Shown piece after piece: positions 34,721-58,576 of a stretch of 64,000 bases of DNA; position 1 is the stretch's first letter, and each line of letters opens with the position of its first letter. The DNA comes from an uncultured Rhodanobacter sp. (GTDB lineage Bacteria > Pseudomonadota > Gammaproteobacteria > Xanthomonadales > Rhodanobacteraceae), in NCBI GenBank assembly GCA_964489055.1, contig CAZAXF010000003.1:11087-75086 (forward strand). The letters are read 5' to 3'. The position numbers and the translations under genes are program-made. A model generated the notes under the pieces. That model made no database searches and was not told the DNA's origin. It saw nothing but the letters and a program-made list of their open reading frames with translations.

Positions 34721-36295
34721 ATGGACCGCGCGCAAAACCTCGCCCGGCTGCAGCGCGAATCCTTCGACCTGCTGGTGATCGGCGGCGGCGCGACCGGCGC
34801 CGGCGTGGCGCTGGACGCCGCCGCGCGCGGACTGTCGGTGGCACTGATCGAGCGCGGCGATTTCGCCAGCGGCACTTCCAGCCGCTCGACCAAGCTGGTG
34901 CACGGCGGGGTGCGCTATCTCGATGCCGCGGTGATGCATCGCGACCGCGCGCAGTTTCACCTGGTTCGCGAAGCACTGGCCGAGCGTGCGATCCTGCTTT
35001 CCATCGCGCCGCACCTGGTGCATCCGCTGCGCACCGTGGTGCCGGCGTACACGTTGTGGCAGGCGATTTTTTATCGCGCGGGCCTGTGGCTGTACGACCG
35101 TGCGGCGGGCGACGCCGCGATCGGGCGCAGTCATTTCCTCTCGCGTGCGCGCATGCTTGCGTCCTTCCCACGGCTTAAGCGACGCGGCCTCAAGGGCGGC
35201 ATTGCCTATTACGACGGCCAGTTCGACGACGCGCGCATGGCGCTGGCGGTGCTGGCGACCGCGGCGCGCGAGTCCGCGGTGGTGGTCAATCGCGTCGAAG
35301 CCGTGGCGCTGCTGGAAGAGGGTGGACGCCTGCGCGGTGCGCGCGTGCATGACCGGATCGGCGGGCAAACGTTCGCGCTTGCCGCGCGCGTGGTCGTCAA
35401 CGCGACCGGCCCCGGCAGTGATGCCCTGCGCCGCATGGAAAATCCGCGCGCCACGCCGCTCCTGGAACCCAGCCGCGGCACCCATGTAGCGCTGGAACGA
35501 TCCTGGGCGCCGCGCGACGACGGTTTGCTGATTCCGAAGACTTCCGACGGGCGCGTGCTGTTCCTGCTGCCGTGGCAAGGCGCCACGCTTGCCGGCACCA
35601 CCGACGTGGCCGCCGACGCGTGCTTCGATCCCGAGCCGAGCGACGCGGAAATCGACTACCTGCTGGCGCAACTGTCCGAATGGCTGGAGCCGCCGCCAGC
35701 TCGCGCGGCACTGCGCGCGAGCTGGGCCGGCCTGCGCCCGCTGATCGCCGAAGCCGCGACCCGCACCGCCAACATCGTGCGCGAGCACCACGTCGCAGTC
35801 GGACCGAAGGGCCTCGTGACCATCGCCGGCGGCAAGTGGACGACCTACCGGCGAATGGCCGAGGAGACCGTCGATCGTGCGATCGAGACGGCACACCTTG
35901 CCCCGCGCAATCCCTGCCGCACCCGCGAACTGAAGCTGGTCGGCGCCGAAGGTTTCGACCATGGATTGGCACGAACGCTCGCCACGCAACACCATCTCGA
36001 CAACGACATCGCCGAACACCTGGCCCACGCCTACGGTGGCCTTGCCGCGCAACTGCTGGCCGAGGCCGGTGAAACCGGCACGCAGCGCCTGTGCCAGGGC
36101 CATCCGTACATCGACGCCGAGGTCTGCTGGGCCCAACGGCACGAAATGGCGCTCACCGCCGCCGATGTCCTGGCCCGGCGCATGCGTCTTGCATTCATCG
36201 ACACCCGCGCCGCGGCCGCGGTGCTACCGCGCGTCGAGGAGATCCTCGCCCGTCACGATCAATGGGGTCAGGATCAATGGGGTCAGAGTCATTGA
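34721..36295 (+). CDS. glpD: Aerobic glycerol-3-phosphate dehydrogenase
   Basis: MDRAQNLARLQRESFDLLVIGGGATGAG (FAD fold). 524 aa. The tail DQWGQDQWGQSH is encoded by the GATCAATG repeats. Confidence 0.93.
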   Translation: MDRAQNLARLQRESFDLLVIGGGATGAGVALDAAARGLSVALIERGDFASGTSSRSTKLVHGGVRYLDAAVMHRDRAQFHLVREALAERAILLSIAPHLVHPLRTVVPAYTLWQAIFYRAGLWLYDRAAGDAAIGRSHFLSRARMLASFPRLKRRGLKGGIAYYDGQFDDARMALAVLATAARESAVVVNRVEAVALLEEGGRLRGARVHDRIGGQTFALAARVVVNATGPGSDALRRMENPRATPLLEPSRGTHVALERSWAPRDDGLLIPKTSDGRVLFLLPWQGATLAGTTDVAADACFDPEPSDAEIDYLLAQLSEWLEPPPARAALRASWAGLRPLIAEAATRTANIVREHHVAVGPKGLVTIAGGKWTTYRRMAEETVDRAIETAHLAPRNPCRTRELKLVGAEGFDHGLARTLATQHHLDNDIAEHLAHAYGGLAAQLLAEAGETGTQRLCQGHPYIDAEVCWAQRHEMALTAADVLARRMRLAFIDTRAAAAVLPRVEEILARHDQWGQDQWGQSH

Positions 36296-36410
36296 TCGCA
36301 TCTGCCGCGAAGAATGGCAGTGCCTGTCGTCATTGCAGTCGAGGCCGGGGCGACGTTGAAACAGGATCAATGACTCTGACCCCATTGATCTCATTGATCC
36401 CATTGATCTT
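36257..36410. repeat. GATCAATG-motif repeat block with a 26-bp perfect inverted repeat (36272-36297 / 36365-36390)
   Basis: GATCAATGGGGTCAG occurs twice in tandem, followed by AGTCATTGATC. The exact reverse complement GATCAATGACTCTGACCCCATTGATC lies 67 nt later and is followed by two more CATTGATC. This block is a probable bidirectional terminator. Confidence 0.9.
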
Positions 36411-37329
36411 GTTCAACGGCCATGGCGGGATCGTCGAGGCACATCGCGGCCACGCCGGATTGTGCGAGCCGGGAGAGGCTTTCGCGGTCGCGCACGTTGG
36501 GGCCCCAGGTGGCTACGGAAACTCCGCACGATGCCGCCGCGCGGACTCGTTCGGTCGTGCAGTCCCGGTCGTACACGAACCATGCATCGCCGCCCGTGGC
36601 CGCGATCGCTTCGGGGTAGCCCTTGCGCGGGTCTTGTCCGGCAAGCCATGGTGCCGTCCCGGACTGGTATTGGTCGCGCAGCATCTGCAGGTCGGCTGCC
36701 GGCGGCGGGTCGTCTTCGCGAGGGGGCGGGCCGGCTTCGAACCAGCTCAGCGGGTTGGTGGTGAACCACGTTGAAAGCGTCGGGCACTGTTGCTTCGCGG
36801 CCACCAGTGCGCTCCAGTCGAAGGAACACAGCGTGGTGCGCGCGATGAAATCGTGCTCGCGGAGGATGGCCAGCGTTTTTTCGACCAGCGCGTGCCAGGG
36901 TTCGCGCGCCGCATCCTCGATCGGCGTCTTGATTTCGACGATCAAGCGGAACGTGGGCGAGCGCGTTTTCACCAGCGCGATGACGTCCGCGAGCCGGGGG
37001 ATGTGCTGGTCCGGCACCGGCTTGATCCGCGGGTGGCCGCGGGCGTAGGCGCTGCCGGGACGCGGGGTGCCGATGTCGAAGCGTTGCAATTCGGCGAACG
37101 TCAGGTCCGCGATCCGCGGCGGGTTGATTTCACCGATCCACACACCGTCCGGACCGCGGCAGAACCCACCGTCCAGTGCATCGTCGTGATGCACCACCAC
37201 CTGCCGGTCACGGCTCAGACGCACGTCAAGCTCGGCGCCGTCGGCGCCAAGCTCGATGGCATGGTCGAACGCTGCCAGCGTGTTCTCGACACGCAACGCC
37301 GCGGCCCCACGGTGTGCAATCACCTGCAT
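36391..37329 (-). CDS. Glycerophosphodiester phosphodiesterase family protein
   Basis: Start at MQVIAHRGAAALRVENTLAAF (ATG 37329). It has GDPD HR..EN and ELDV motifs. The tail EQDQWDQ is encoded by the repeat block. Confidence 0.88.
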   Translation of the reverse strand: MQVIAHRGAAALRVENTLAAFDHAIELGADGAELDVRLSRDRQVVVHHDDALDGGFCRGPDGVWIGEINPPRIADLTFAELQRFDIGTPRPGSAYARGHPRIKPVPDQHIPRLADVIALVKTRSPTFRLIVEIKTPIEDAAREPWHALVEKTLAILREHDFIARTTLCSFDWSALVAAKQQCPTLSTWFTTNPLSWFEAGPPPREDDPPPAADLQMLRDQYQSGTAPWLAGQDPRKGYPEAIAATGGDAWFVYDRDCTTERVRAAASCGVSVATWGPNVRDRESLSRLAQSGVAAMCLDDPAMAVEQDQWDQ

Positions 37330-37589: not shown

Positions 37590-38432
37590 TCACGCACACA
37601 ACACCGCGGCGTGGTGCCGCAGGTGGTCCTCGATGAAACTTTGCACGAACCAGTAGCTGTGGTCGTAGCCCGGCTGCATGCGCAGGGTCAGCGGCTGACC
37701 GGCGGCCTTGCAGGCCTCGTCCAGCAGCTCGGGGCGCAATTGTTCGTGGAGGAAGGGATCCTGCTCGCCCTGGTCGACCAGGATCTTGCCGGGGAAACGC
37801 TTGCCCGCCCGGATCAATTCGGTCGCGTCGTGCTGCTTCCATTGCTCGCGATCCGGTCCGAGGTACATGATGAAGATCTTGCGTTCTCCCCACGGAACCT
37901 GTGTGGGGGCGGCGATCGGCGCCAGCGCCGAGAGCGAGCGGTATTTGCCCGGGTGCCGGAGTGCCAGCGTCAGCGCACCATGGCCGCCCATGGAATGGCC
38001 CATGATGCCGCAGCGCTCGAAATCGGCGGGAAAGTTCGCCGCGATTACGTTCGGCAGTTCATCGCTCACCCAGGTTTCCATCTGGAAACGTGACGACCAC
38101 GGCGACTCGGTGGCATCGACGTAGAAACCTGCCCCCTCGCCGAATTCCCAGTCGTCGGTGGCGCCCTCGAAACCCGTGTCGCGCGGACTGGTGTCCGGCG
38201 CGACCAGGATCAGGCCGAGCTCGGCGGCGGCGCGCTGGGCGCCGGCCTTGATCGGAAAGGTTTCGGGCGTGCAGGTGAGGCCGGCGAGGTAGATCAATAC
38301 CGGAGCCTTCCCGTTGGCGGCCTGGGGTGGTGTGTATACCGCAAACTCCATGGGACCCGCGCATGCCTTCGACTCGTGGCGATAGAAGCCTTGCATGCCG
38401 CCGAAGCAGCGTTGTTCCGAAATCGTTTCCAT
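37590..38432 (-). CDS. fghA: S-formylglutathione hydrolase (esterase D)
   Basis: 280 aa with GHSMGGHGAL and typical FrmB/EstD similarity. It lies downstream of adhC. Confidence 0.95.
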   Translation of the reverse strand: METISEQRCFGGMQGFYRHESKACAGPMEFAVYTPPQAANGKAPVLIYLAGLTCTPETFPIKAGAQRAAAELGLILVAPDTSPRDTGFEGATDDWEFGEGAGFYVDATESPWSSRFQMETWVSDELPNVIAANFPADFERCGIMGHSMGGHGALTLALRHPGKYRSLSALAPIAAPTQVPWGERKIFIMYLGPDREQWKQHDATELIRAGKRFPGKILVDQGEQDPFLHEQLRPELLDEACKAAGQPLTLRMQPGYDHSYWFVQSFIEDHLRHHAAVLCA

Positions 38433-38563: not shown

Positions 38564-39673
38564 TCAGTACACGACCACGCTGCGTATCGACTCCCCCTTG
38601 TGCATCAGGTCGAAACCGTGATTGATGTCCTCGAGCTTCAGGTGGTGCGTGATCATCGGGTCGATCTCGATCAGGCCCTGCATGTACCAGTCGACCACCC
38701 TGGGTACGTCGGTGCGTCCGCGCATCCCGCCGAACGCGGTGCCGATCCAGCGCCGTCCGGTGACCAGCTGGAAGGGCCGCGTCGAGATTTCCTTTCCGGC
38801 CCCGGCGACGCCGATGATGCAGGAAACGCCCCAGCCCTTGTGGCAGCATTCCAGCGCCTGGCGCATCACCTTGACGTTGCCGATGCACTCGAAGGAGTAA
38901 TCGGCGCCGCCTTTCGTCAATGAAACAAGGTAGGGCACCAGGTCGCCTTCGACTTCGCCGGCGTTGACGAAATGCGTCATGCCGAATTTTTCCGCGAGCT
39001 CCTTGCGTTTGGGGTTCAGGTCGACGCCCACGATCATCGCCGCGCCGGCAAGGCGTGCACCCTGGATCACGTTGAGGCCGATGCCGCCCAATCCGAAAAC
39101 CACGACCTTCGCGCCCGGTTCCACCTTTGCCGTATTGACGACCGCGCCGATGCCCGTCGAGACGCCGCAGCCGATGTAGCAGACCTTGTCGAACGGCGCG
39201 TCCTCGCGGATCTTCGCCACCGCGATTTCCGGCAGCACCGTGTATTCGGCGAAGGTGGAGGTGCCCATGTAGTGGTGGATCATTTCGCCGCCCGATGAAA
39301 AGCGGCTGCTGCCGTCGGGCATCAGGCCCTTGCCCTGGGTTTCGCGGACCGCCTGGCACAGGTTGGTCTTGGGGTTGAGGCAATACTCGCACTCGCGGCA
39401 TTCGGGCGTGTACAGCGGGATCACGTGGTCTCCCTTCTGCACCGACGTGACCCCTGCGCCGGTCTCGACCACGACGCCCGCGCCCTCGTGCCCGAGGATC
39501 GCCGGGAACAGGCCTTCGGGGTCGTCGCCAGACAACGTGAAGGCATCGGTGTGGCACAGGCCGGTGGCCTTCAATTGCACCAGCACCTCGCCCGCGTGCG
39601 GGCCCTCGAGGTCGACGGTTTCGATTGTGAGCGGCGCACCGGCCTTGTGCGCGACGGCGGCTTTCACTTTCAT
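38564..39673 (-). CDS. adhC: S-(hydroxymethyl)glutathione dehydrogenase / class III alcohol dehydrogenase
   Basis: Start at [15 protein letters not shown] (ATG 39673). GLCHTD and GHEGAG zinc motifs are present. 369 aa. Confidence 0.96.
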
Positions 39674-39749
39674 GCGGTGGCTCCGTTTCAAGGCGACCCC
39701 GGAGTGTAACCTGACGATCGTGAGGTTCGCGTTGTCGCGCTGTGTCGTG

Positions 39750-40497
39750 AAGAACGCTTGCCACAGATCAAGAGCATCGGACGCGGATCGACGCGGATTC
39801 CCGCGGGTCAGAAGCCCTTGTCCGCGTTTGTCCGCGCAAATCCGCGTCAAAAGCTCTTTGCCACGGATTGACACGGATGCCACGGATCAGAAGCATTCTG
39901 ACGCGGATCGACGCGGATGCCCGCGGATCAGAAGCCCTTGTCCGTGTTTGTCCGCGCAAATCCGCGTCAAAAGCTCTTTGCCACGGATCTACACGGATGC
40001 CACGGATCAGAAGCATTTTGACGCGGAGCGACGCGGATTCCCGCGGGTCAGAAGCCCTTGTCTGCGTTTGTCCGCGCAAGTCCGCGTCAAAAGCTCTTTG
40101 CCACGGATTGACACGGATGCCACGGATCAGAAGCATTTTGACGCAGAGCGACGCGGATGCCCGCGGATCAGAAGCTCGCATCCGTGTTCATCCGTGCAAA
40201 TCCGTGGTCGAGATTGCCGTCGTGGTTGCGAGCCGTGGACGCGGATCGACCCGGATACTGCGGAACAAGCACAGCTTCCATCCGCGTTTGTCCGCGCAAG
40301 TCCGCGTCAAGAGCGCTTTGCCACGGATCAAAAGCATTTTGACGCGGAGCGACGCGGATGCGCGCGGATTAGAAGCCATTGTCCGTATTCTTCCGCGCAA
40401 GTCCGCGTCAAGAGCGCTTTGCCGCGGATGAACACGGATGCCACGGATCAGAAGCCTTTATCCGTGTCGATCCGTGCAAATCCGTGGCAGAAAAGCC
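39750..40497. repeat. Hierarchical tandem array: three near-identical 120-bp units (39781, 39901, 40021) plus about four degenerate modules
   Basis: Exact 120-bp periodicity is visible in the raw lines. Each unit holds 10-bp-phased ACGCGGAT/CCACGGAT heptamer triplets and their inverted copies, with CAGAAGC loops. See findings. Confidence 0.95.
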
Positions 40498-40507
40498 TTG
40501 GTAGTGC

Positions 40508-42103
40508 TCAGGCTTCGATGCGGCTCTCGCGTGTGTCGGAGAAAGTGATATCGGGCCAGCGTTCCTGCGCCAGTTGCAGGTTCACGCGGGTCGGCGCCAG
40601 GTACACCAGTTGCTCGGCTGCATCCAGCGCCAGGTGCGACGCGTTGCGTTCGCGAAACTCGGCCAGCTTCTTCGCATTGTCGCAGTGCACCCAGCGTGCG
40701 GTCACGACGGCGACATTGTCGAACGTGCAGTCGACGTTGTATTCGTCCTTCAATCGATACGCGGCGACATCGAACTGCAGCACGCCGATCGCGCCGAGGA
40801 TCAAGTCGTTGGACATCAGGGGACGGAAGAATTGCGTGGCGCCTTCCTCGGACAATTGCGCAAGGCCCGCGCGCAGCGCCTTCATCTTCAGCGGGTCGCG
40901 CAGGCGCGCGCGGCGGAACAGCTCCGGCGCGAAGTTGGGGATGCCGGTGAAAACCAGCTTTTCGCCCTCGCTGAAGCTGTCGCCGATGGAAATGGTGCCG
41001 TGGTTGTGCAGGCCGATCACGTCGCCCGGATACGCTGCGTCGGCGATGCCGCGTTCGGAGGCCATGAAGGTCAACGCGTTGGCCAGCTTCACTTCCTTGC
41101 CGGTGCGCACCTGCAGTGCCTTCATTCCGGATTCGTACCTGCCCGAACACACGCGCAGGAACGCCACGCGATCGCGGTGCTGCGGATCCATGTTGGCCTG
41201 GATCTTGAACACGAAGCCGGTGAGCTTGTCTTCGTCGGGCAGAACCTTCCGTGAAACGGTTGCGCGCGGGCCGGGCGACGGCGCGTGTTCGACGAAGAAA
41301 TCCAGCAGCGGCTGGACGCCGAAGTTGTTGACGGCCGAGCCGAAGAACACCGGCGTCTGTTCGCCTGCCAGGTATTTTTCGACGTCGAACGGATGCGAGG
41401 CACCCTGCACCAGCTCCAGTTCCTCGCGCACTTCGGCCAACGCGTCCGCGCCGATGCGCCTTTCCAGCTCCGGGTCGTCGAGGCCCTTCAGGATGGTCGA
41501 ATCCTGGCGCGTGAAATTGCGCCCCGGCTCGTACAGGTGCACTTCGTCGGCGAGCAGGTGGTACACGCCCTTCAGGCGCTTGCCCATACCGATCGGCCAG
41601 GTGACCGGGGCACACTGGATTTTCAGCACAGACTCGATTTCATCCAGCAGCTCGATCGGCGGTCGGCCTTCGCGGTCGAGCTTGTTGATGAAGGTCATGA
41701 TCGGCGTGGTGCGAAGGCGGCACACCTCCATCAGCTTGATGGTGCGCTCCTCCACACCGCGGGCGCAGTCGATCACCATCAGCGCCGAATCGACCGCGGT
41801 CAGCACGCGGTAGGTGTCCTCGGAAAAATCCGCGTGCCCGGGGGTGTCCAGCAGGTTGACGATGCGATCGGCATACGGAAACTGCATCACCGAAGAGGTG
41901 ACCGAGATGCCGCGCTCCTTTTCCAGCGCCATCCAGTCGGACGTGGCATGGCGCGCGGTCTTGCGACTCTTGACCGCGCCGGCCATCTGGATCGCGCCGC
42001 CGAACAGCAGCAGCTTTTCGGTCAGCGTGGTCTTGCCCGCGTCCGGGTGCGAGATGATCGCGAAGGTGCGGCGACGGGCGGTTTCGGTGGCGTGGGATGG
42101 CAT
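40508..42103 (-). CDS. prfC: Peptide chain release factor 3
   Basis: 531 aa with G1 [16 protein letters not shown] and typical RF3 similarity throughout. Confidence 0.97.
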
Positions 42104-56512: not shown

Positions 56513-57788
56513 GCCGGCGCGCCGCCTTGGCCGATGGCAGGAACGCCTCGATCACGTCGTTGAGGAAGCGTTGGCCGAGCGCCGTGGTCTGGAGGTATTC
56601 GGGATCGTCGACCAGCCAGCCCCTCGTGCGTGCCGCGCGCAGCGGTGTGGCGATCGCCGCGCGCGCGAGGCCGGTGCGCGCGGTGAATTGCGCGAGCGGC
56701 ACACCATCGTGCAATCGCAATGCATTCAACATGAACTCGAACGGCAACTGCCCGGCGGTGATGGTTTCGTTGCCCTTGATGCGCCGTGTCGAGGCCGCGC
56801 CCTGCAGATACGCACGCGGCGAGCGCACTTTCGCGCGCCGCCGGATCACCAATGCACCCGCGACCTGCGTCGTCCCCGGTCCCCGGTCCCCGGTCCCCGG
56901 TCCCGACACCTTTCCATGTGCCCCCGCCCCGATCCCGAGGTAATCCCCGAATTCCCAGTAGTTGAGGTTGTGCCGGCAACGCCGGCCCGCCTGCGCGTAG
57001 GCCGACACTTCGTACTGCGCATAGCCGGCTTCGGCCAGCCGCGTCTGACAGGCCTCCTGCATGTCCCAGGCGGCATCGTCGTCGGGCAGCGGCGGCGGAC
57101 GCTTCGCGAACGGCGTGCCCGGCTCCAGCGTCAACTGGTAGTGCGAGACGTGCGCGGGCGCCAGCGCGATGGCGCGTTCCACGTCCGCCATTGCGCCATC
57201 CAGCGTCTGGTTGGGCAGCGCGTACATCAGATCCAGGTTGATGTTGTCGCAGCCGGCATCCTGTGCCTGCTTCACCGCCGCCTCGGCTTCGCCCGCCGAG
57301 TGGATGCGTCCCAGCGCGCGCAGTTTTGCGTCATCGAAACTCTGCACGCCGAAGGAAATGCGGTTGACGCCCGCGTCGCGATAGCCGTCGAAGCGACCGT
57401 GCTCGACCGTGCCGGGATTGGTTTCCAGGGTGATTTCGCAGTCACGCGCGAACGGCAATCGTGCTGCCGCGCCATCGAGGATCGCGGCGATGGAATCGGG
57501 GGCGAACAGGCTGGGCGTGCCACCGCCAAAGAACACGCTGACGATTTCGCGCCCCGCCAGCGCGTCGCCGAAATCGGCAATGTCCCCGTCGAGGTCGGCC
57601 AGCAGCGCCGCCACGTATTCGCACTCGGGCATCGCCGCGCGCAGCCCGTGCGAATTGAAGTCGCAGTACGGACACTTCTTCACGCACCAGGGGATGTGGA
57701 TGTAGAGCGAAAGCGGGACCGGGGACTGGGGACCGGGGACCGGGCTTCGGCGGATTTCGGGCTGCGTCGTGGCTGGAATGGGGGGCAT
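56505..57788 (-). CDS. hemW: Radical SAM haem chaperone HemW (HemN-like, oxygen-independent coproporphyrinogen oxidase family)
   Basis: Start at MPPIPATT (ATG 57788). LYIHIPWCVKKCPYCDFNSH (CxxxCxxC). 427 aa, about 50 longer than E. coli HemW because of two heptamer-repeat-encoded inserts. Confidence 0.92.
   Translation of the reverse strand: MPPIPATTQPEIRRSPVPGPQSPVPLSLYIHIPWCVKKCPYCDFNSHGLRAAMPECEYVAALLADLDGDIADFGDALAGREIVSVFFGGGTPSLFAPDSIAAILDGAAARLPFARDCEITLETNPGTVEHGRFDGYRDAGVNRISFGVQSFDDAKLRALGRIHSAGEAEAAVKQAQDAGCDNINLDLMYALPNQTLDGAMADVERAIALAPAHVSHYQLTLEPGTPFAKRPPPLPDDDAAWDMQEACQTRLAEAGYAQYEVSAYAQAGRRCRHNLNYWEFGDYLGIGAGAHGKVSGPGTGDRGPGTTQVAGALVIRRRAKVRSPRAYLQGAASTRRIKGNETITAGQLPFEFMLNALRLHDGVPLAQFTARTGLARAAIATPLRAARTRGWLVDDPEYLQTTALGQRFLNDVIEAFLPSAKAARRHA
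56872..56905. repeat. Heptanucleotide microsatellite (GTCCCCG)x4.9, cluster a, inside hemW
   Basis: gtccccg gtccccg gtccccg gtccccg gtcccg. It is translated on the minus strand as [11 protein letters not shown] in a loop after GAHGKV. Confidence 0.95.
57715..57744. repeat. Same heptamer in inverted orientation (GGGGACC-type on + strand), cluster b, hemW codons ~15-25
   Basis: gggacc ggggact ggggacc ggggacc ggg. It is translated as SPVPGPQSPVP. Confidence 0.95.
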
Positions 57789-57820: not shown

Positions 57821-58576
57821 TCAGGTACTGCCGGTCCCCGGTCCCAGGCTTCCGCTTCCCGGTCCCCGGTCCCCGGTCCCCAGCGTCTGACGCAGCTCCG
57901 CCAACGCCCTTCCCCGATGACTGATCCGGTTCTTGACCGCCGGATCGAGTTCGGCGGAGCTGAGCCCGCCGCCGTCGTCGGGCAGGAACAGCGGGTCGTA
58001 GCCGAAGCCGCCTTCGCCGCGCGGCGCGGTGAGCACGCGGCCGGGCCAACGGCCGGTGGCGAGGATCGGGTCGGGATCGTCGGCATGCCGCAGCAGCGCC
58101 AGCACGCAGGTGAAGTGCGCACCGCGGCGATCTTCGGGCACGCCTTCCAGTTCGCGCAGCAACCTGGCGTTGTTGCCGGCGTTGTCGCCGTGCACGCCGG
58201 CGTAGAGCGCCGAATACAGGCCCGGCGCGCCGTCCAGCGCATCCACGCAGATCCCCGAGTCGTCGGCCAGCGCCGGCAGGCCCGACGCGCGCGTGGCGTG
58301 GCGCGCCTTCAGGATGGCGTTCTCGACAAAGGTCAGCCCGGTTTCCTCCGCATCGTCGATCCCGAGTTCGCGCTGCGAAACCAGCTCGATGCCGCTGCCC
58401 GCCAACAGCCCGCGCAGTTCGGCGAGTTTGCCGGCGTTGCCACTGGCCAGGACGATGCGTTCCCCCGGTCCCCGGAAACTCGCCGCTCCTGCGGCTCGCC
58501 CTCCGGGCCATCGGCTGCGCCGATGTTCGCTCCGGCATCCTGCCTCCGCAGTCCCGGTCCCCGGTCCCGGTTTCAT
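57821..58576 (-). CDS. rdgB: Non-canonical purine NTP pyrophosphatase (RdgB/HAM1)
   Basis: [21 protein letters not shown] and ISHRGRA are present. The only in-frame canonical start is the ATG at 58576 (ATGA overlap with the rph stop). This gives a ~40-aa N-terminal extension relative to typical ~200-aa RdgB proteins. Confidence 0.88.
57831..57881. repeat. Heptamer cluster c (2 + 3 copies) at the 3' end of rdgB
   Basis: ccggtccccggtccca ... cccggtccccggtccccggtcccc. It encodes the RdgB C-terminal tail [20 protein letters not shown]. Confidence 0.95.
58462..58475. repeat. Heptamer cluster d (2 copies) in the rdgB N-terminal extension
   Basis: cccccggtccccgg, translated as FRGPGE. Confidence 0.8.
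58551..58570. repeat. Heptamer cluster e (~3 imperfect copies) at rdgB codons 2-8
   Basis: gtcccggtccccggtcccgg, translated as KPGPGTGT. Confidence 0.85.

Follow-up and report, generated by a model that had tools for sequence, protein, structure and literature searches.

A phased-heptamer hairpin array between prfC and adhC in an uncultured Rhodanobacter is probably a locally amplified cluster of REPIN- or MITE-like elements

What kind of element packs some fifty copies of a heptamer, in both orientations and phased to one helical turn, into the spacer between two bacterial genes? The array that raises this question occupies positions 39759-40497 of a 64,000-nucleotide stretch from an uncultured Rhodanobacter sp. 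(contig CAZAXF010000003.1, assembly GCA_964489055.1), hereafter the window, where it separates prfC from adhC. The original prediction, made from the sequence alone, had offered three options: an orphan protein-binding array following the logic of iterons and plasmid centromeres, a multi-hairpin RNA, or an unusually ordered relative of the repetitive extragenic palindromic (REP) sequences and bacterial interspersed mosaic elements (BIMEs). The third came closest, whereas the iteron or centromere form and the dedicated RNA fitted poorly. We regard the array, with a probability of roughly 0.6, as a locally multiplied, orphan cluster of selfish, non-autonomous elements that resemble hairpin-forming REP doublets (REPINs) or miniature inverted-repeat transposable elements (MITEs) and that lie here without their usual gene.

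Within 39740-40510 we counted 51 heptamers matching CRCGGAT or its inverse ATCCGYG with at most one mismatch, 30 of them direct and 21 inverted, a density of 66 per kb against 8.4 per kb in the rest of the window. Strict CRCGGAT occurs 79 times across the window (42.4 +/- 7.0 in shuffled sequences), and 33 of the 79 fall within 39782-40486. Neighbouring heptamers of the same orientation are spaced by 10 nt in 25 of 35 cases and by 9 nt in four. The building unit is an arm of three heptamers separated by spacers of 2-4 nt; a module is a direct arm joined through a loop to an inverted one, and the array (no strand assigned) comprises seven such convergent pairs, H1 to H7, with loops of about 11-23 nt, together with solo arms. 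Each pair folds into three short helices, and the internal loops between them measure about 3-4 nt on each side. Tandem Repeats Finder reported a period of 120 over 39759-40204 (3.7 copies, 90% matches, score 703) and an underlying 40-nt period over 39801-40134, and a 185-nt repeat has copies starting at 39780, 39900 and 40020 (100, 94 and 93%) and a degenerate copy at 40341 (69%). The three 120-bp units (39781-40140, no strand assigned), which start at 39781, 39901 and 40021 and of which the later two are 94% and 93% identical to the first, each hold one hairpin module, composed of a CGCGGAT arm, the loop CAGAAGCCCTTG and an inverted arm, and one solo CACGGAT arm. They represent a recent tandem duplication, the latest step in the expansion of the array. 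The motif CGGATCAGAAGC (at most one mismatch) has 10 matches in the window, every one within the array, and the GC content of the array (0.57-0.605) is lower than that of its flanks (0.61-0.69). The distance to the prfC stop codon (40508-40510) is 10 nt. Much of this had been anticipated: the 120-bp tandem units, about fifty heptamers, their 10-bp phasing, a motif recurring about ten times, seven hairpin modules of direct and inverted triplets, the lower GC content and an end 10 nt from the prfC stop were all recovered.

The same architecture recurs far from Rhodanobacter. A search with the arm pattern CGGAT-N2-4-CRCGGAT-N2-4-CRCGGAT found more than 120 stretches in IMG/VR and more than 120 in a collection of species-representative genomes. 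Named hosts among the matches listed belong to Acidobacteriota, Verrucomicrobiota, Planctomycetota, Chloroflexota, Nitrospirota, Spirochaetota and the delta-, beta- and gamma-Proteobacteria; the Xanthomonadales are represented there by Luteimonas arsenica (loci L152 and L156), a Lysobacteraceae metagenome-assembled genome (MAG; L158) and a Proluteimonas luteida locus (L239). Across the family, an arm consists of three heptamers with free spacers of 2-4 nt and an outer end reading ttRRC or GCC, and the consensus of the outer flanks is T-T-A-R-C. The proteobacterial ends ttttGCCACGGAT ... ATCCGTGGCaaaagc, read in L152, L156 and L158, are also those of the window, whose outer ends GCCACGGAT and ATCCGTGGC match the Xanthomonadales copies read. 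The listed matches comprise 240 loci with 476 arms, and the modal number of heptamers per arm is three (363 arms). Neighbouring arms in these loci are convergent in 101 cases, divergent in 13 and in tandem in 21, and the loops between them, 3 to 237 nt long, show no sequence relationship. The window follows this anatomy: the arm typical of the family, two to five (modally three) xxxxGAT heptamers at 9-11 nt with a conserved outer end, recurs there, as do convergent arm pairs around a free loop, of which the window has seven. In many phyla, modules occur singly at unrelated intergenic sites. The two Luteimonas loci, which lie at distant sites, have part of their interior sequence in common. An analogue of the window's array was found in a delta-proteobacterial MAG, where six modules of about 131 nt stand in tandem (L183, 1015-1766). 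Two module subtypes alternate in that array, giving a higher-order unit of 262 nt. Searches of the accessible literature on the heptamers, on GxxExxY and on PDDEXK_3 returned no description of the repeat family, and none was found in Rfam.

The arms keep company with one gene. An all-against-all comparison among open reading frames (ORFs) next to arms revealed one recurrent cellular family, proteins of about 125-150 aa encoded between convergent arms 380-520 nt apart, in five loci from four phyla (L136, L168, L192, L216 and L245). These proteins are assigned to Pfam PF13366 (PDDEXK_3; E-values of 1e-34 to 1e-39) and to NCBIfam TIGR04256, "GxxExxY protein". Among the genome loci that had been seeded on heptamers, five of the seven convergent pairs with gaps of 330-520 nt enclose a PF13366/TIGR04256 gene, and the other two have no convincing gene between their arms. 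No second recurrent cargo family was seen among the arm neighbours, and other arm-bracketed ORFs appeared spurious. None of the arm-bracketed ORFs was recognised as an S23p four-helix-bundle protein, although no search was made with the PF05635 model or seed.

We also assembled 80 PDDEXK_3 loci from metagenomes, chosen by protein motif alone, which removes the bias of repeat-based seeding. Phased xxxxGAT triplets occurred in this sample at 2.51 per kb within 170 nt of the gene ends and at 0.09 per kb more than 300 nt away, an enrichment of about 28-fold. In the commonest layout, the arm upstream of the gene was direct (+) and the one downstream inverted (-), and matched inverted arms bracketed it in 29 of the 80 loci; some PDDEXK_3 genes are flanked by two complete hairpins. 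The heptamer itself varies by lineage (CACGGAT, CGCGGAT, CACAGAT, CGCAGAT, CGCTGAT and TTATGAT), while the GAT core and the phase of about 10 nt are kept. Within the D...(D/E)xK motif, D73 and K85 do not vary across the PDDEXK_3 alignment. The GxxExxY/PDDEXK_3 family was listed in 2012 as "Unknown" with "multiple transfers" (PMC3424549).

Several further observations concern these cassettes. PDDEXK_3 cassettes at seemingly identical genomic sites were met in different metagenomes (L247-L255), with the number and type of arms varying by sample; one recurrent site lies before an ispF-like gene beginning MRIGYGWDSHEF. In two loci (L245, 5738-6181; L192, 3537-3932) the called start of the PDDEXK_3 gene falls inside the upstream arm, and the N-termini MNTDEHG and MARMDTDKD of such ORFs are translated heptamers.

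The locus itself can be compared with those of close relatives. The host belongs to the Rhodanobacteraceae, and the comparison covered the loci of eight relatives with PrfC identities of 82-92%, the best being 92%. Five of the eight (L121-L125) keep prfC next to adhC, with spacers of about 170 bp and no arm; the other three (L126, L327 and L328) carry a different gene after prfC, and no arm was seen at its 3' end. Since the prfC loci of relatives lack the array, we interpret it as a lineage-specific insertion that expanded later. In the window, the array is flanked by prfC (peptide chain release factor 3; 40508-42103, minus strand; NF001964, 874 bits) on the transcriptionally upstream side and by adhC (S-(hydroxymethyl)glutathione dehydrogenase; 38564-39673, minus strand; TIGR02818, 606 bits) on the downstream side, with fghA (37590-38432; TIGR02821) next after adhC. 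The native adhC leader spans 39674-39758 on the minus strand, and its proximal 45 nt or so are common to relatives that lack the array. This block of about 45 nt before the adhC start (GTTACACT...GGAGCC..ATG) is similar by eye in the window (39674-39720) and in two relatives (L121, 7755-7793; L123, 7745-7783), and is possibly adhC's native control region. The spacer of the closest relative contains an unrelated duplicated motif (GCCCTTCC..GGAAGGGGCGAGGG; L121, 7680-7745), and the prfC-adhC spacer seems to collect repeats. The window's junction pattern TCAARAGCKCTTTGCCRCGGAT had no match in viral contigs.

Overall, the window's modules have the anatomy of a family that spans many phyla, the arms of that family are strongly convergent and associated with a nuclease gene, and relatives of the host lack the array. 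Whether heptamer-armed hairpins and the PDDEXK_3 gene form a previously undescribed mobile system across these phyla, driven by the nuclease in parallel to REPINs and their REP-associated tyrosine transposases (RAYTs) and reading three phased heptamers per element end on duplex DNA, with gene-less modules, solo arms and tandem arrays as its non-autonomous progeny, is a more tentative proposal, to which we give somewhat less than even odds. In the mechanism that we envisage, an arm comprises three xxxxGAT heptamers (here CRCGGAT) at a spacing of 9-11 bp with a short conserved outer end, two convergent arms yield a hairpin-forming module, and in the full-length element two arms bracket a gene for a PD-(D/E)XK nuclease of about 125-150 aa. 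A multimeric protein may read the heptamers on double-stranded DNA, the bracketed nuclease being the obvious candidate, and this protein, acting in trans, could spread the modules. One or a few modules would have inserted just after prfC in the window's lineage and multiplied there, most recently through unequal recombination or slippage of the 120-bp unit, which corresponds to 1.5 modules. For the host, the array would probably be neutral baggage that places strong hairpins at the 3' end of prfC and in the adhC leader.

A number of points weigh against this account. The 64-kb window holds no PDDEXK_3 gene, and because it holds no arm outside the array either, this genome may have very few copies of what is called a "dispersed" element. 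No target-site duplication was seen at the elements, whose flanks belong to the inverted repeat. Solitary arms make up 57% of the 476 arms. Binding or cutting of the arms by the nuclease is a candidate role, proposed from sequence; PDDEXK_3 has no relative in PDB by sequence and no match in PADLOC or PHROGs. The recurrence of the same heptamer across phyla could reflect a host factor rather than a protein encoded by the element. Finally, solo arms stand before nearly every gene in phage-like contigs, which a model of transposon ends leaves unexplained.

In four phage-like IMG/VR contigs (L062, 2059-8379; L082, 3232-11491; L025; L027), most of the short gaps inspected carry solo arms of two to five heptamers. 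The solo arms of phage-like contigs share the direction of the genes, and a start codon often follows a few tens of nucleotides after their end. We considered arms as promoter or 5'-untranslated-region elements, for which a first crude count (53 vs 27 toward downstream genes) had seemed to speak, and rejected this as a general property. After splitting by source, the orientation of arms relative to genes was unbiased in bacterial genomes (22 vs 20; 11 vs 12), and a weak bias toward downstream genes persisted in phage-like contigs only.

The hairpins invite a different explanation, in which the array acts as a cis-acting structured RNA within a prfC-adhC co-transcript, be it a stabiliser of the prfC 3' end, a set of RNase III sites, or an insulator or attenuator for adhC-fghA. 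The flanking genes are co-directional, we found no promoter-like or terminator-like site in the spacer, and the first stem begins about 10-20 nt past the prfC stop. Single stems reach -28 to -51 kcal/mol, and the full spacer folds well beyond shuffled sequences on the sense strand (z -10.0). The ORF-bearing intervening sequences of 23S rRNA, with 28-bp terminal stems that are cut by RNase III (PMC4990558), likewise speak for such a role. However, the module energies are about equal on the two strands, and the antisense strand of the spacer folds equally well or better (z -12.3). Selected base pairing would predict covariation between partner heptamers and an excess of G.U pairs on the transcribed strand, and both are missing. 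Partner and non-partner heptamers of the same hairpin match equally often (85.2% vs 84.8% at position 2; 78.2% vs 78.3% at position 4), so that the covariation check on partner heptamers gave no pairing-specific signal, and of the transitions in 31 gene-bearing cassettes, 8 would produce G.U in the sense RNA against 18 in the antisense RNA, without a bias toward the sense strand. The spacers within the stems are non-complementary even though the heptamers are conserved, and relatives with the prfC-adhC pair do without the array. Rfam yielded nothing relevant for the array at gathering or permissive thresholds, the permissive matches being noise (three miRNAs and one snoRNA, all eukaryotic, at 16-21 bits and E-values of 0.35-4.5). 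No intrinsic terminator was found in the spacer; the family's stems have T-runs before and A-runs after them, the opposite order. We thus consider a selected RNA function unlikely, and for these reasons any effect of the array at the RNA level is more likely a by-product.

The suggestion that the one-turn phasing marks protein-binding sites has fared better. Because the heptamers are conserved, the spacers and loops are free, the phase equals one helical turn, and neither covariation nor a G.U bias is present, the heptamers are probably protein-recognition sites on duplex DNA. It is the iteron or centromere form of this suggestion that is not supported. A host chromosomal binding array of that kind, or a nucleoid-organising one, with about 50 sites on one face of the DNA, would agree with the 10-bp phase, with conserved heptamers and free spacers, and with the fact that nothing in the evidence favours pairing over sequence. 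Like this array, iterons, parC and sopC are short repeats in helical phase that bind protein (in our case putatively), but they have rep or par genes as neighbours and keep to one replicon, and they do not occur as scattered hairpins. As had been predicted, no partition or replication gene lies nearby: the neighbours are prfC, adhC, fghA and a phosphodiesterase. Moreover, single copies of the same module are scattered over unrelated intergenic sites in many phyla, the closest relatives lack the array, and the gene that arms recurrently bracket encodes a PD-(D/E)XK nuclease rather than a Rep or Par protein. We therefore judge a host binding array to be improbable, and retain the cluster of REPIN- or MITE-like elements as the preferred interpretation.

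The form CACGGAU also fits the CANGGAN core of CsrA/RsmA sites, and RsmA is known in Xanthomonadales. An RNA from the plus strand, with about 30 CRCGGAU motifs (30 direct heptamers), might accordingly be imagined to sequester CsrA/RsmA, and binding by CsrA-like proteins has been proposed for an unrelated heptamer repeat that crosses phyla (PMC4679880). Yet the lineage variants CACAGAT, CGCTGAT and TTATGAT lack the GGA, the majority of the motifs sit in paired stems and not in open loops, and the strand rich in motifs lies antisense to the two neighbouring genes, with no promoter or terminator that we could find. Such a sponge would also leave the inverted arms and the nuclease association unexplained, and we give it very little credence.

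Equally slight is the chance that the array is an assembly artefact or a coding region. A short-read assembly could miscount three near-identical 120-bp units, and all three plus-strand frames are open across the array. Scattered substitutions distinguish the units, however; four distinct degenerate modules flank them, and comparable arrays and single modules occur in independent assemblies. The long plus-strand ORF runs antisense to prfC, and the translations have no homologue. Coding was examined as a candidate and rejected: a protein search with the three concatenated frames of the array returned nothing at E <= 0.001. The earlier remark that such repeats translate to IRVHP-like peptides is correct in so far as the array encodes IRVHP- and IRVNP-like strings, but these lie in spurious frames, and the protein search found no match to them.

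Among described systems, REP, BIME and REPIN sequences with their RAYTs are, by analogy, the closest in lifestyle. They occur as intergenic singlets, oriented inverted doublets and clusters, with repeats on both sides of one small gene (PMC3116915, PMC3337134). The elements described here share the singlets, the inverted doublets that form long hairpins, and the tandem clusters; one inverted arrangement is strongly preferred (here 101 convergent pairs against 13 divergent), the repeats again stand on either side of one small gene, and copies without the gene far exceed those with it. They differ in that an arm consists of three direct heptamers and is not self-complementary, whereas a REP is a small palindrome with a GTAG head, absent from the outer consensus TTARC or GCC; in that the flanked gene encodes a PF13366 PD-(D/E)XK protein instead of the HUH/Y1 transposase RAYT; and in that the heptamer recurs across phyla while REPs are lineage-specific. 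REPs reach tens to hundreds of copies per genome; the copy density in the 64-kb window, with its one locus, is low.

MITEs resemble the modules in their terminal inverted repeats, their variable non-coding interior and the existence of a longer, same-ended form that carries a gene, and related copies are dispersed within one genome, as in the two Luteimonas loci. Unlike MITEs, the modules lack a target-site duplication, their flanks (ttaaC.../...Gttaa and ttttGCC.../...GGCaaaa) being inverted rather than direct; the same-ended cassettes encode a PD-(D/E)XK protein and not a known transposase; and the ends are internally repetitive, with many arms solitary. The ORF-bearing intervening sequences in the 23S rRNA of Coxiella and Leptospira, in which an ORF lies between terminal inverted repeats of about 28 bp (PMC4990558), are comparable as small selfish cassettes that carry an uncharacterised ORF in a stem-forming bracket inside a transcription unit. 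They sit, however, in rRNA helices, are removed by RNase III and encode an S23p four-helix-bundle protein. Intervening sequences of this kind may also carry GxxExxY genes. The TAACTGA heptamer repeats, found as intergenic direct repeats in Beggiatoaceae, Cyanobacteria and Bacteroidetes and unexplained in mechanism (PMC4679880), are also a heptamer family that crosses phyla, and they often lie just upstream of start codons, as do the solo arms of phage-like contigs. In contrast to our arms, they are direct heptamer repeats, which by their description we take to be contiguous (a 7-nt period), with one inverted set only and no reported nuclease partner.

If our interpretation is correct, the family would provide a second and mechanistically different instance of the REPIN/RAYT type of lifestyle, with a simple recognition code of three xxxxGAT heptamers one helical turn apart. 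Spurious ORFs of the IRVHPW or NTDEHG type and odd hairpins in soil and freshwater phyla would then trace back to one family, and the repeats would gain a testable protein partner, whose function has stood as "unknown" since 2012 (PMC3424549). For annotation, such arrays should be masked as repeats rather than called as genes. In the host, the array separates a translation factor gene from a formaldehyde-detoxification operon by very stable hairpins over about 0.75 kb, which may change how the gene and the operon are coupled.

Part by part, the first module of the array on its adhC side is H1 (39770-39858), whose arms lie at 39782-39808 and 39820-39846 and carry the outer extension AAGAGC/GCTCTT; it folds at -48.5 kcal/mol on the plus strand and -50.8 kcal/mol on the minus strand (z about -6). 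The first solo arm follows on the plus strand (39859-39887), reading TGCCACGGAT-tga-CACGGAT-g-CCACGGAT with spacings of 10 and 9 nt. Two more rounds succeed it: H2 (39890-39978; -44.2 and -48.5 kcal/mol, plus strand given first here and below) with the second copy of the solo CACGGAT arm (39979-40007, plus strand), and H3 (40010-40098; -45.8 and -43.7 kcal/mol) with the third (40099-40127, plus strand). H4 (40130-40212) is a hybrid that joins a CGCGGAT arm to an ATCCGTG arm, and its stem is the weakest (-30.0 and -28.0 kcal/mol; z -1.6 and -1.3). A short heptamer-free interruption (40207-40239) leads to the degenerate H5 (40232-40316; -37.1 and -38.6 kcal/mol) and to the remnant of a solo arm on the plus strand (40319-40339), where one TGCCACGGAT is followed by CAAAAGC. 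H6 (40331-40418) folds at -41.7 and -38.7 kcal/mol. H7 (40412-40498; -43.4 and -42.2 kcal/mol) is canonical, with three GCCRCGGAT, an 11-nt loop and three ATCCGTG ending in GGCA, and its annotated end is about 10 nt from the prfC stop. None of the seven modules has a strand assigned, nor has the interruption.

Elsewhere in the window, a SAM riboswitch (RF00162; 45988-46107, plus strand, 80.3 bits) is the sole Rfam match at gathering score. A cluster of 7-nt tandem repeats (GTCCCCG, GGGACCG and CCGGTCC) extends over about 1.7 kb, at 56872-56904, 57715-57744, 57831-57881 and 58551-58571. A second, different phased-repeat hairpin, present in a single copy in the window, lies between convergent ORFs at 36252-36411. 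It contains CATTGATC three times at a 9-nt phase and GATCAATGGGGTCAG twice at a 15-nt phase, and includes a perfect 26-nt inverted repeat (36272-36297 and 36365-36390) whose halves are 67 nt apart.

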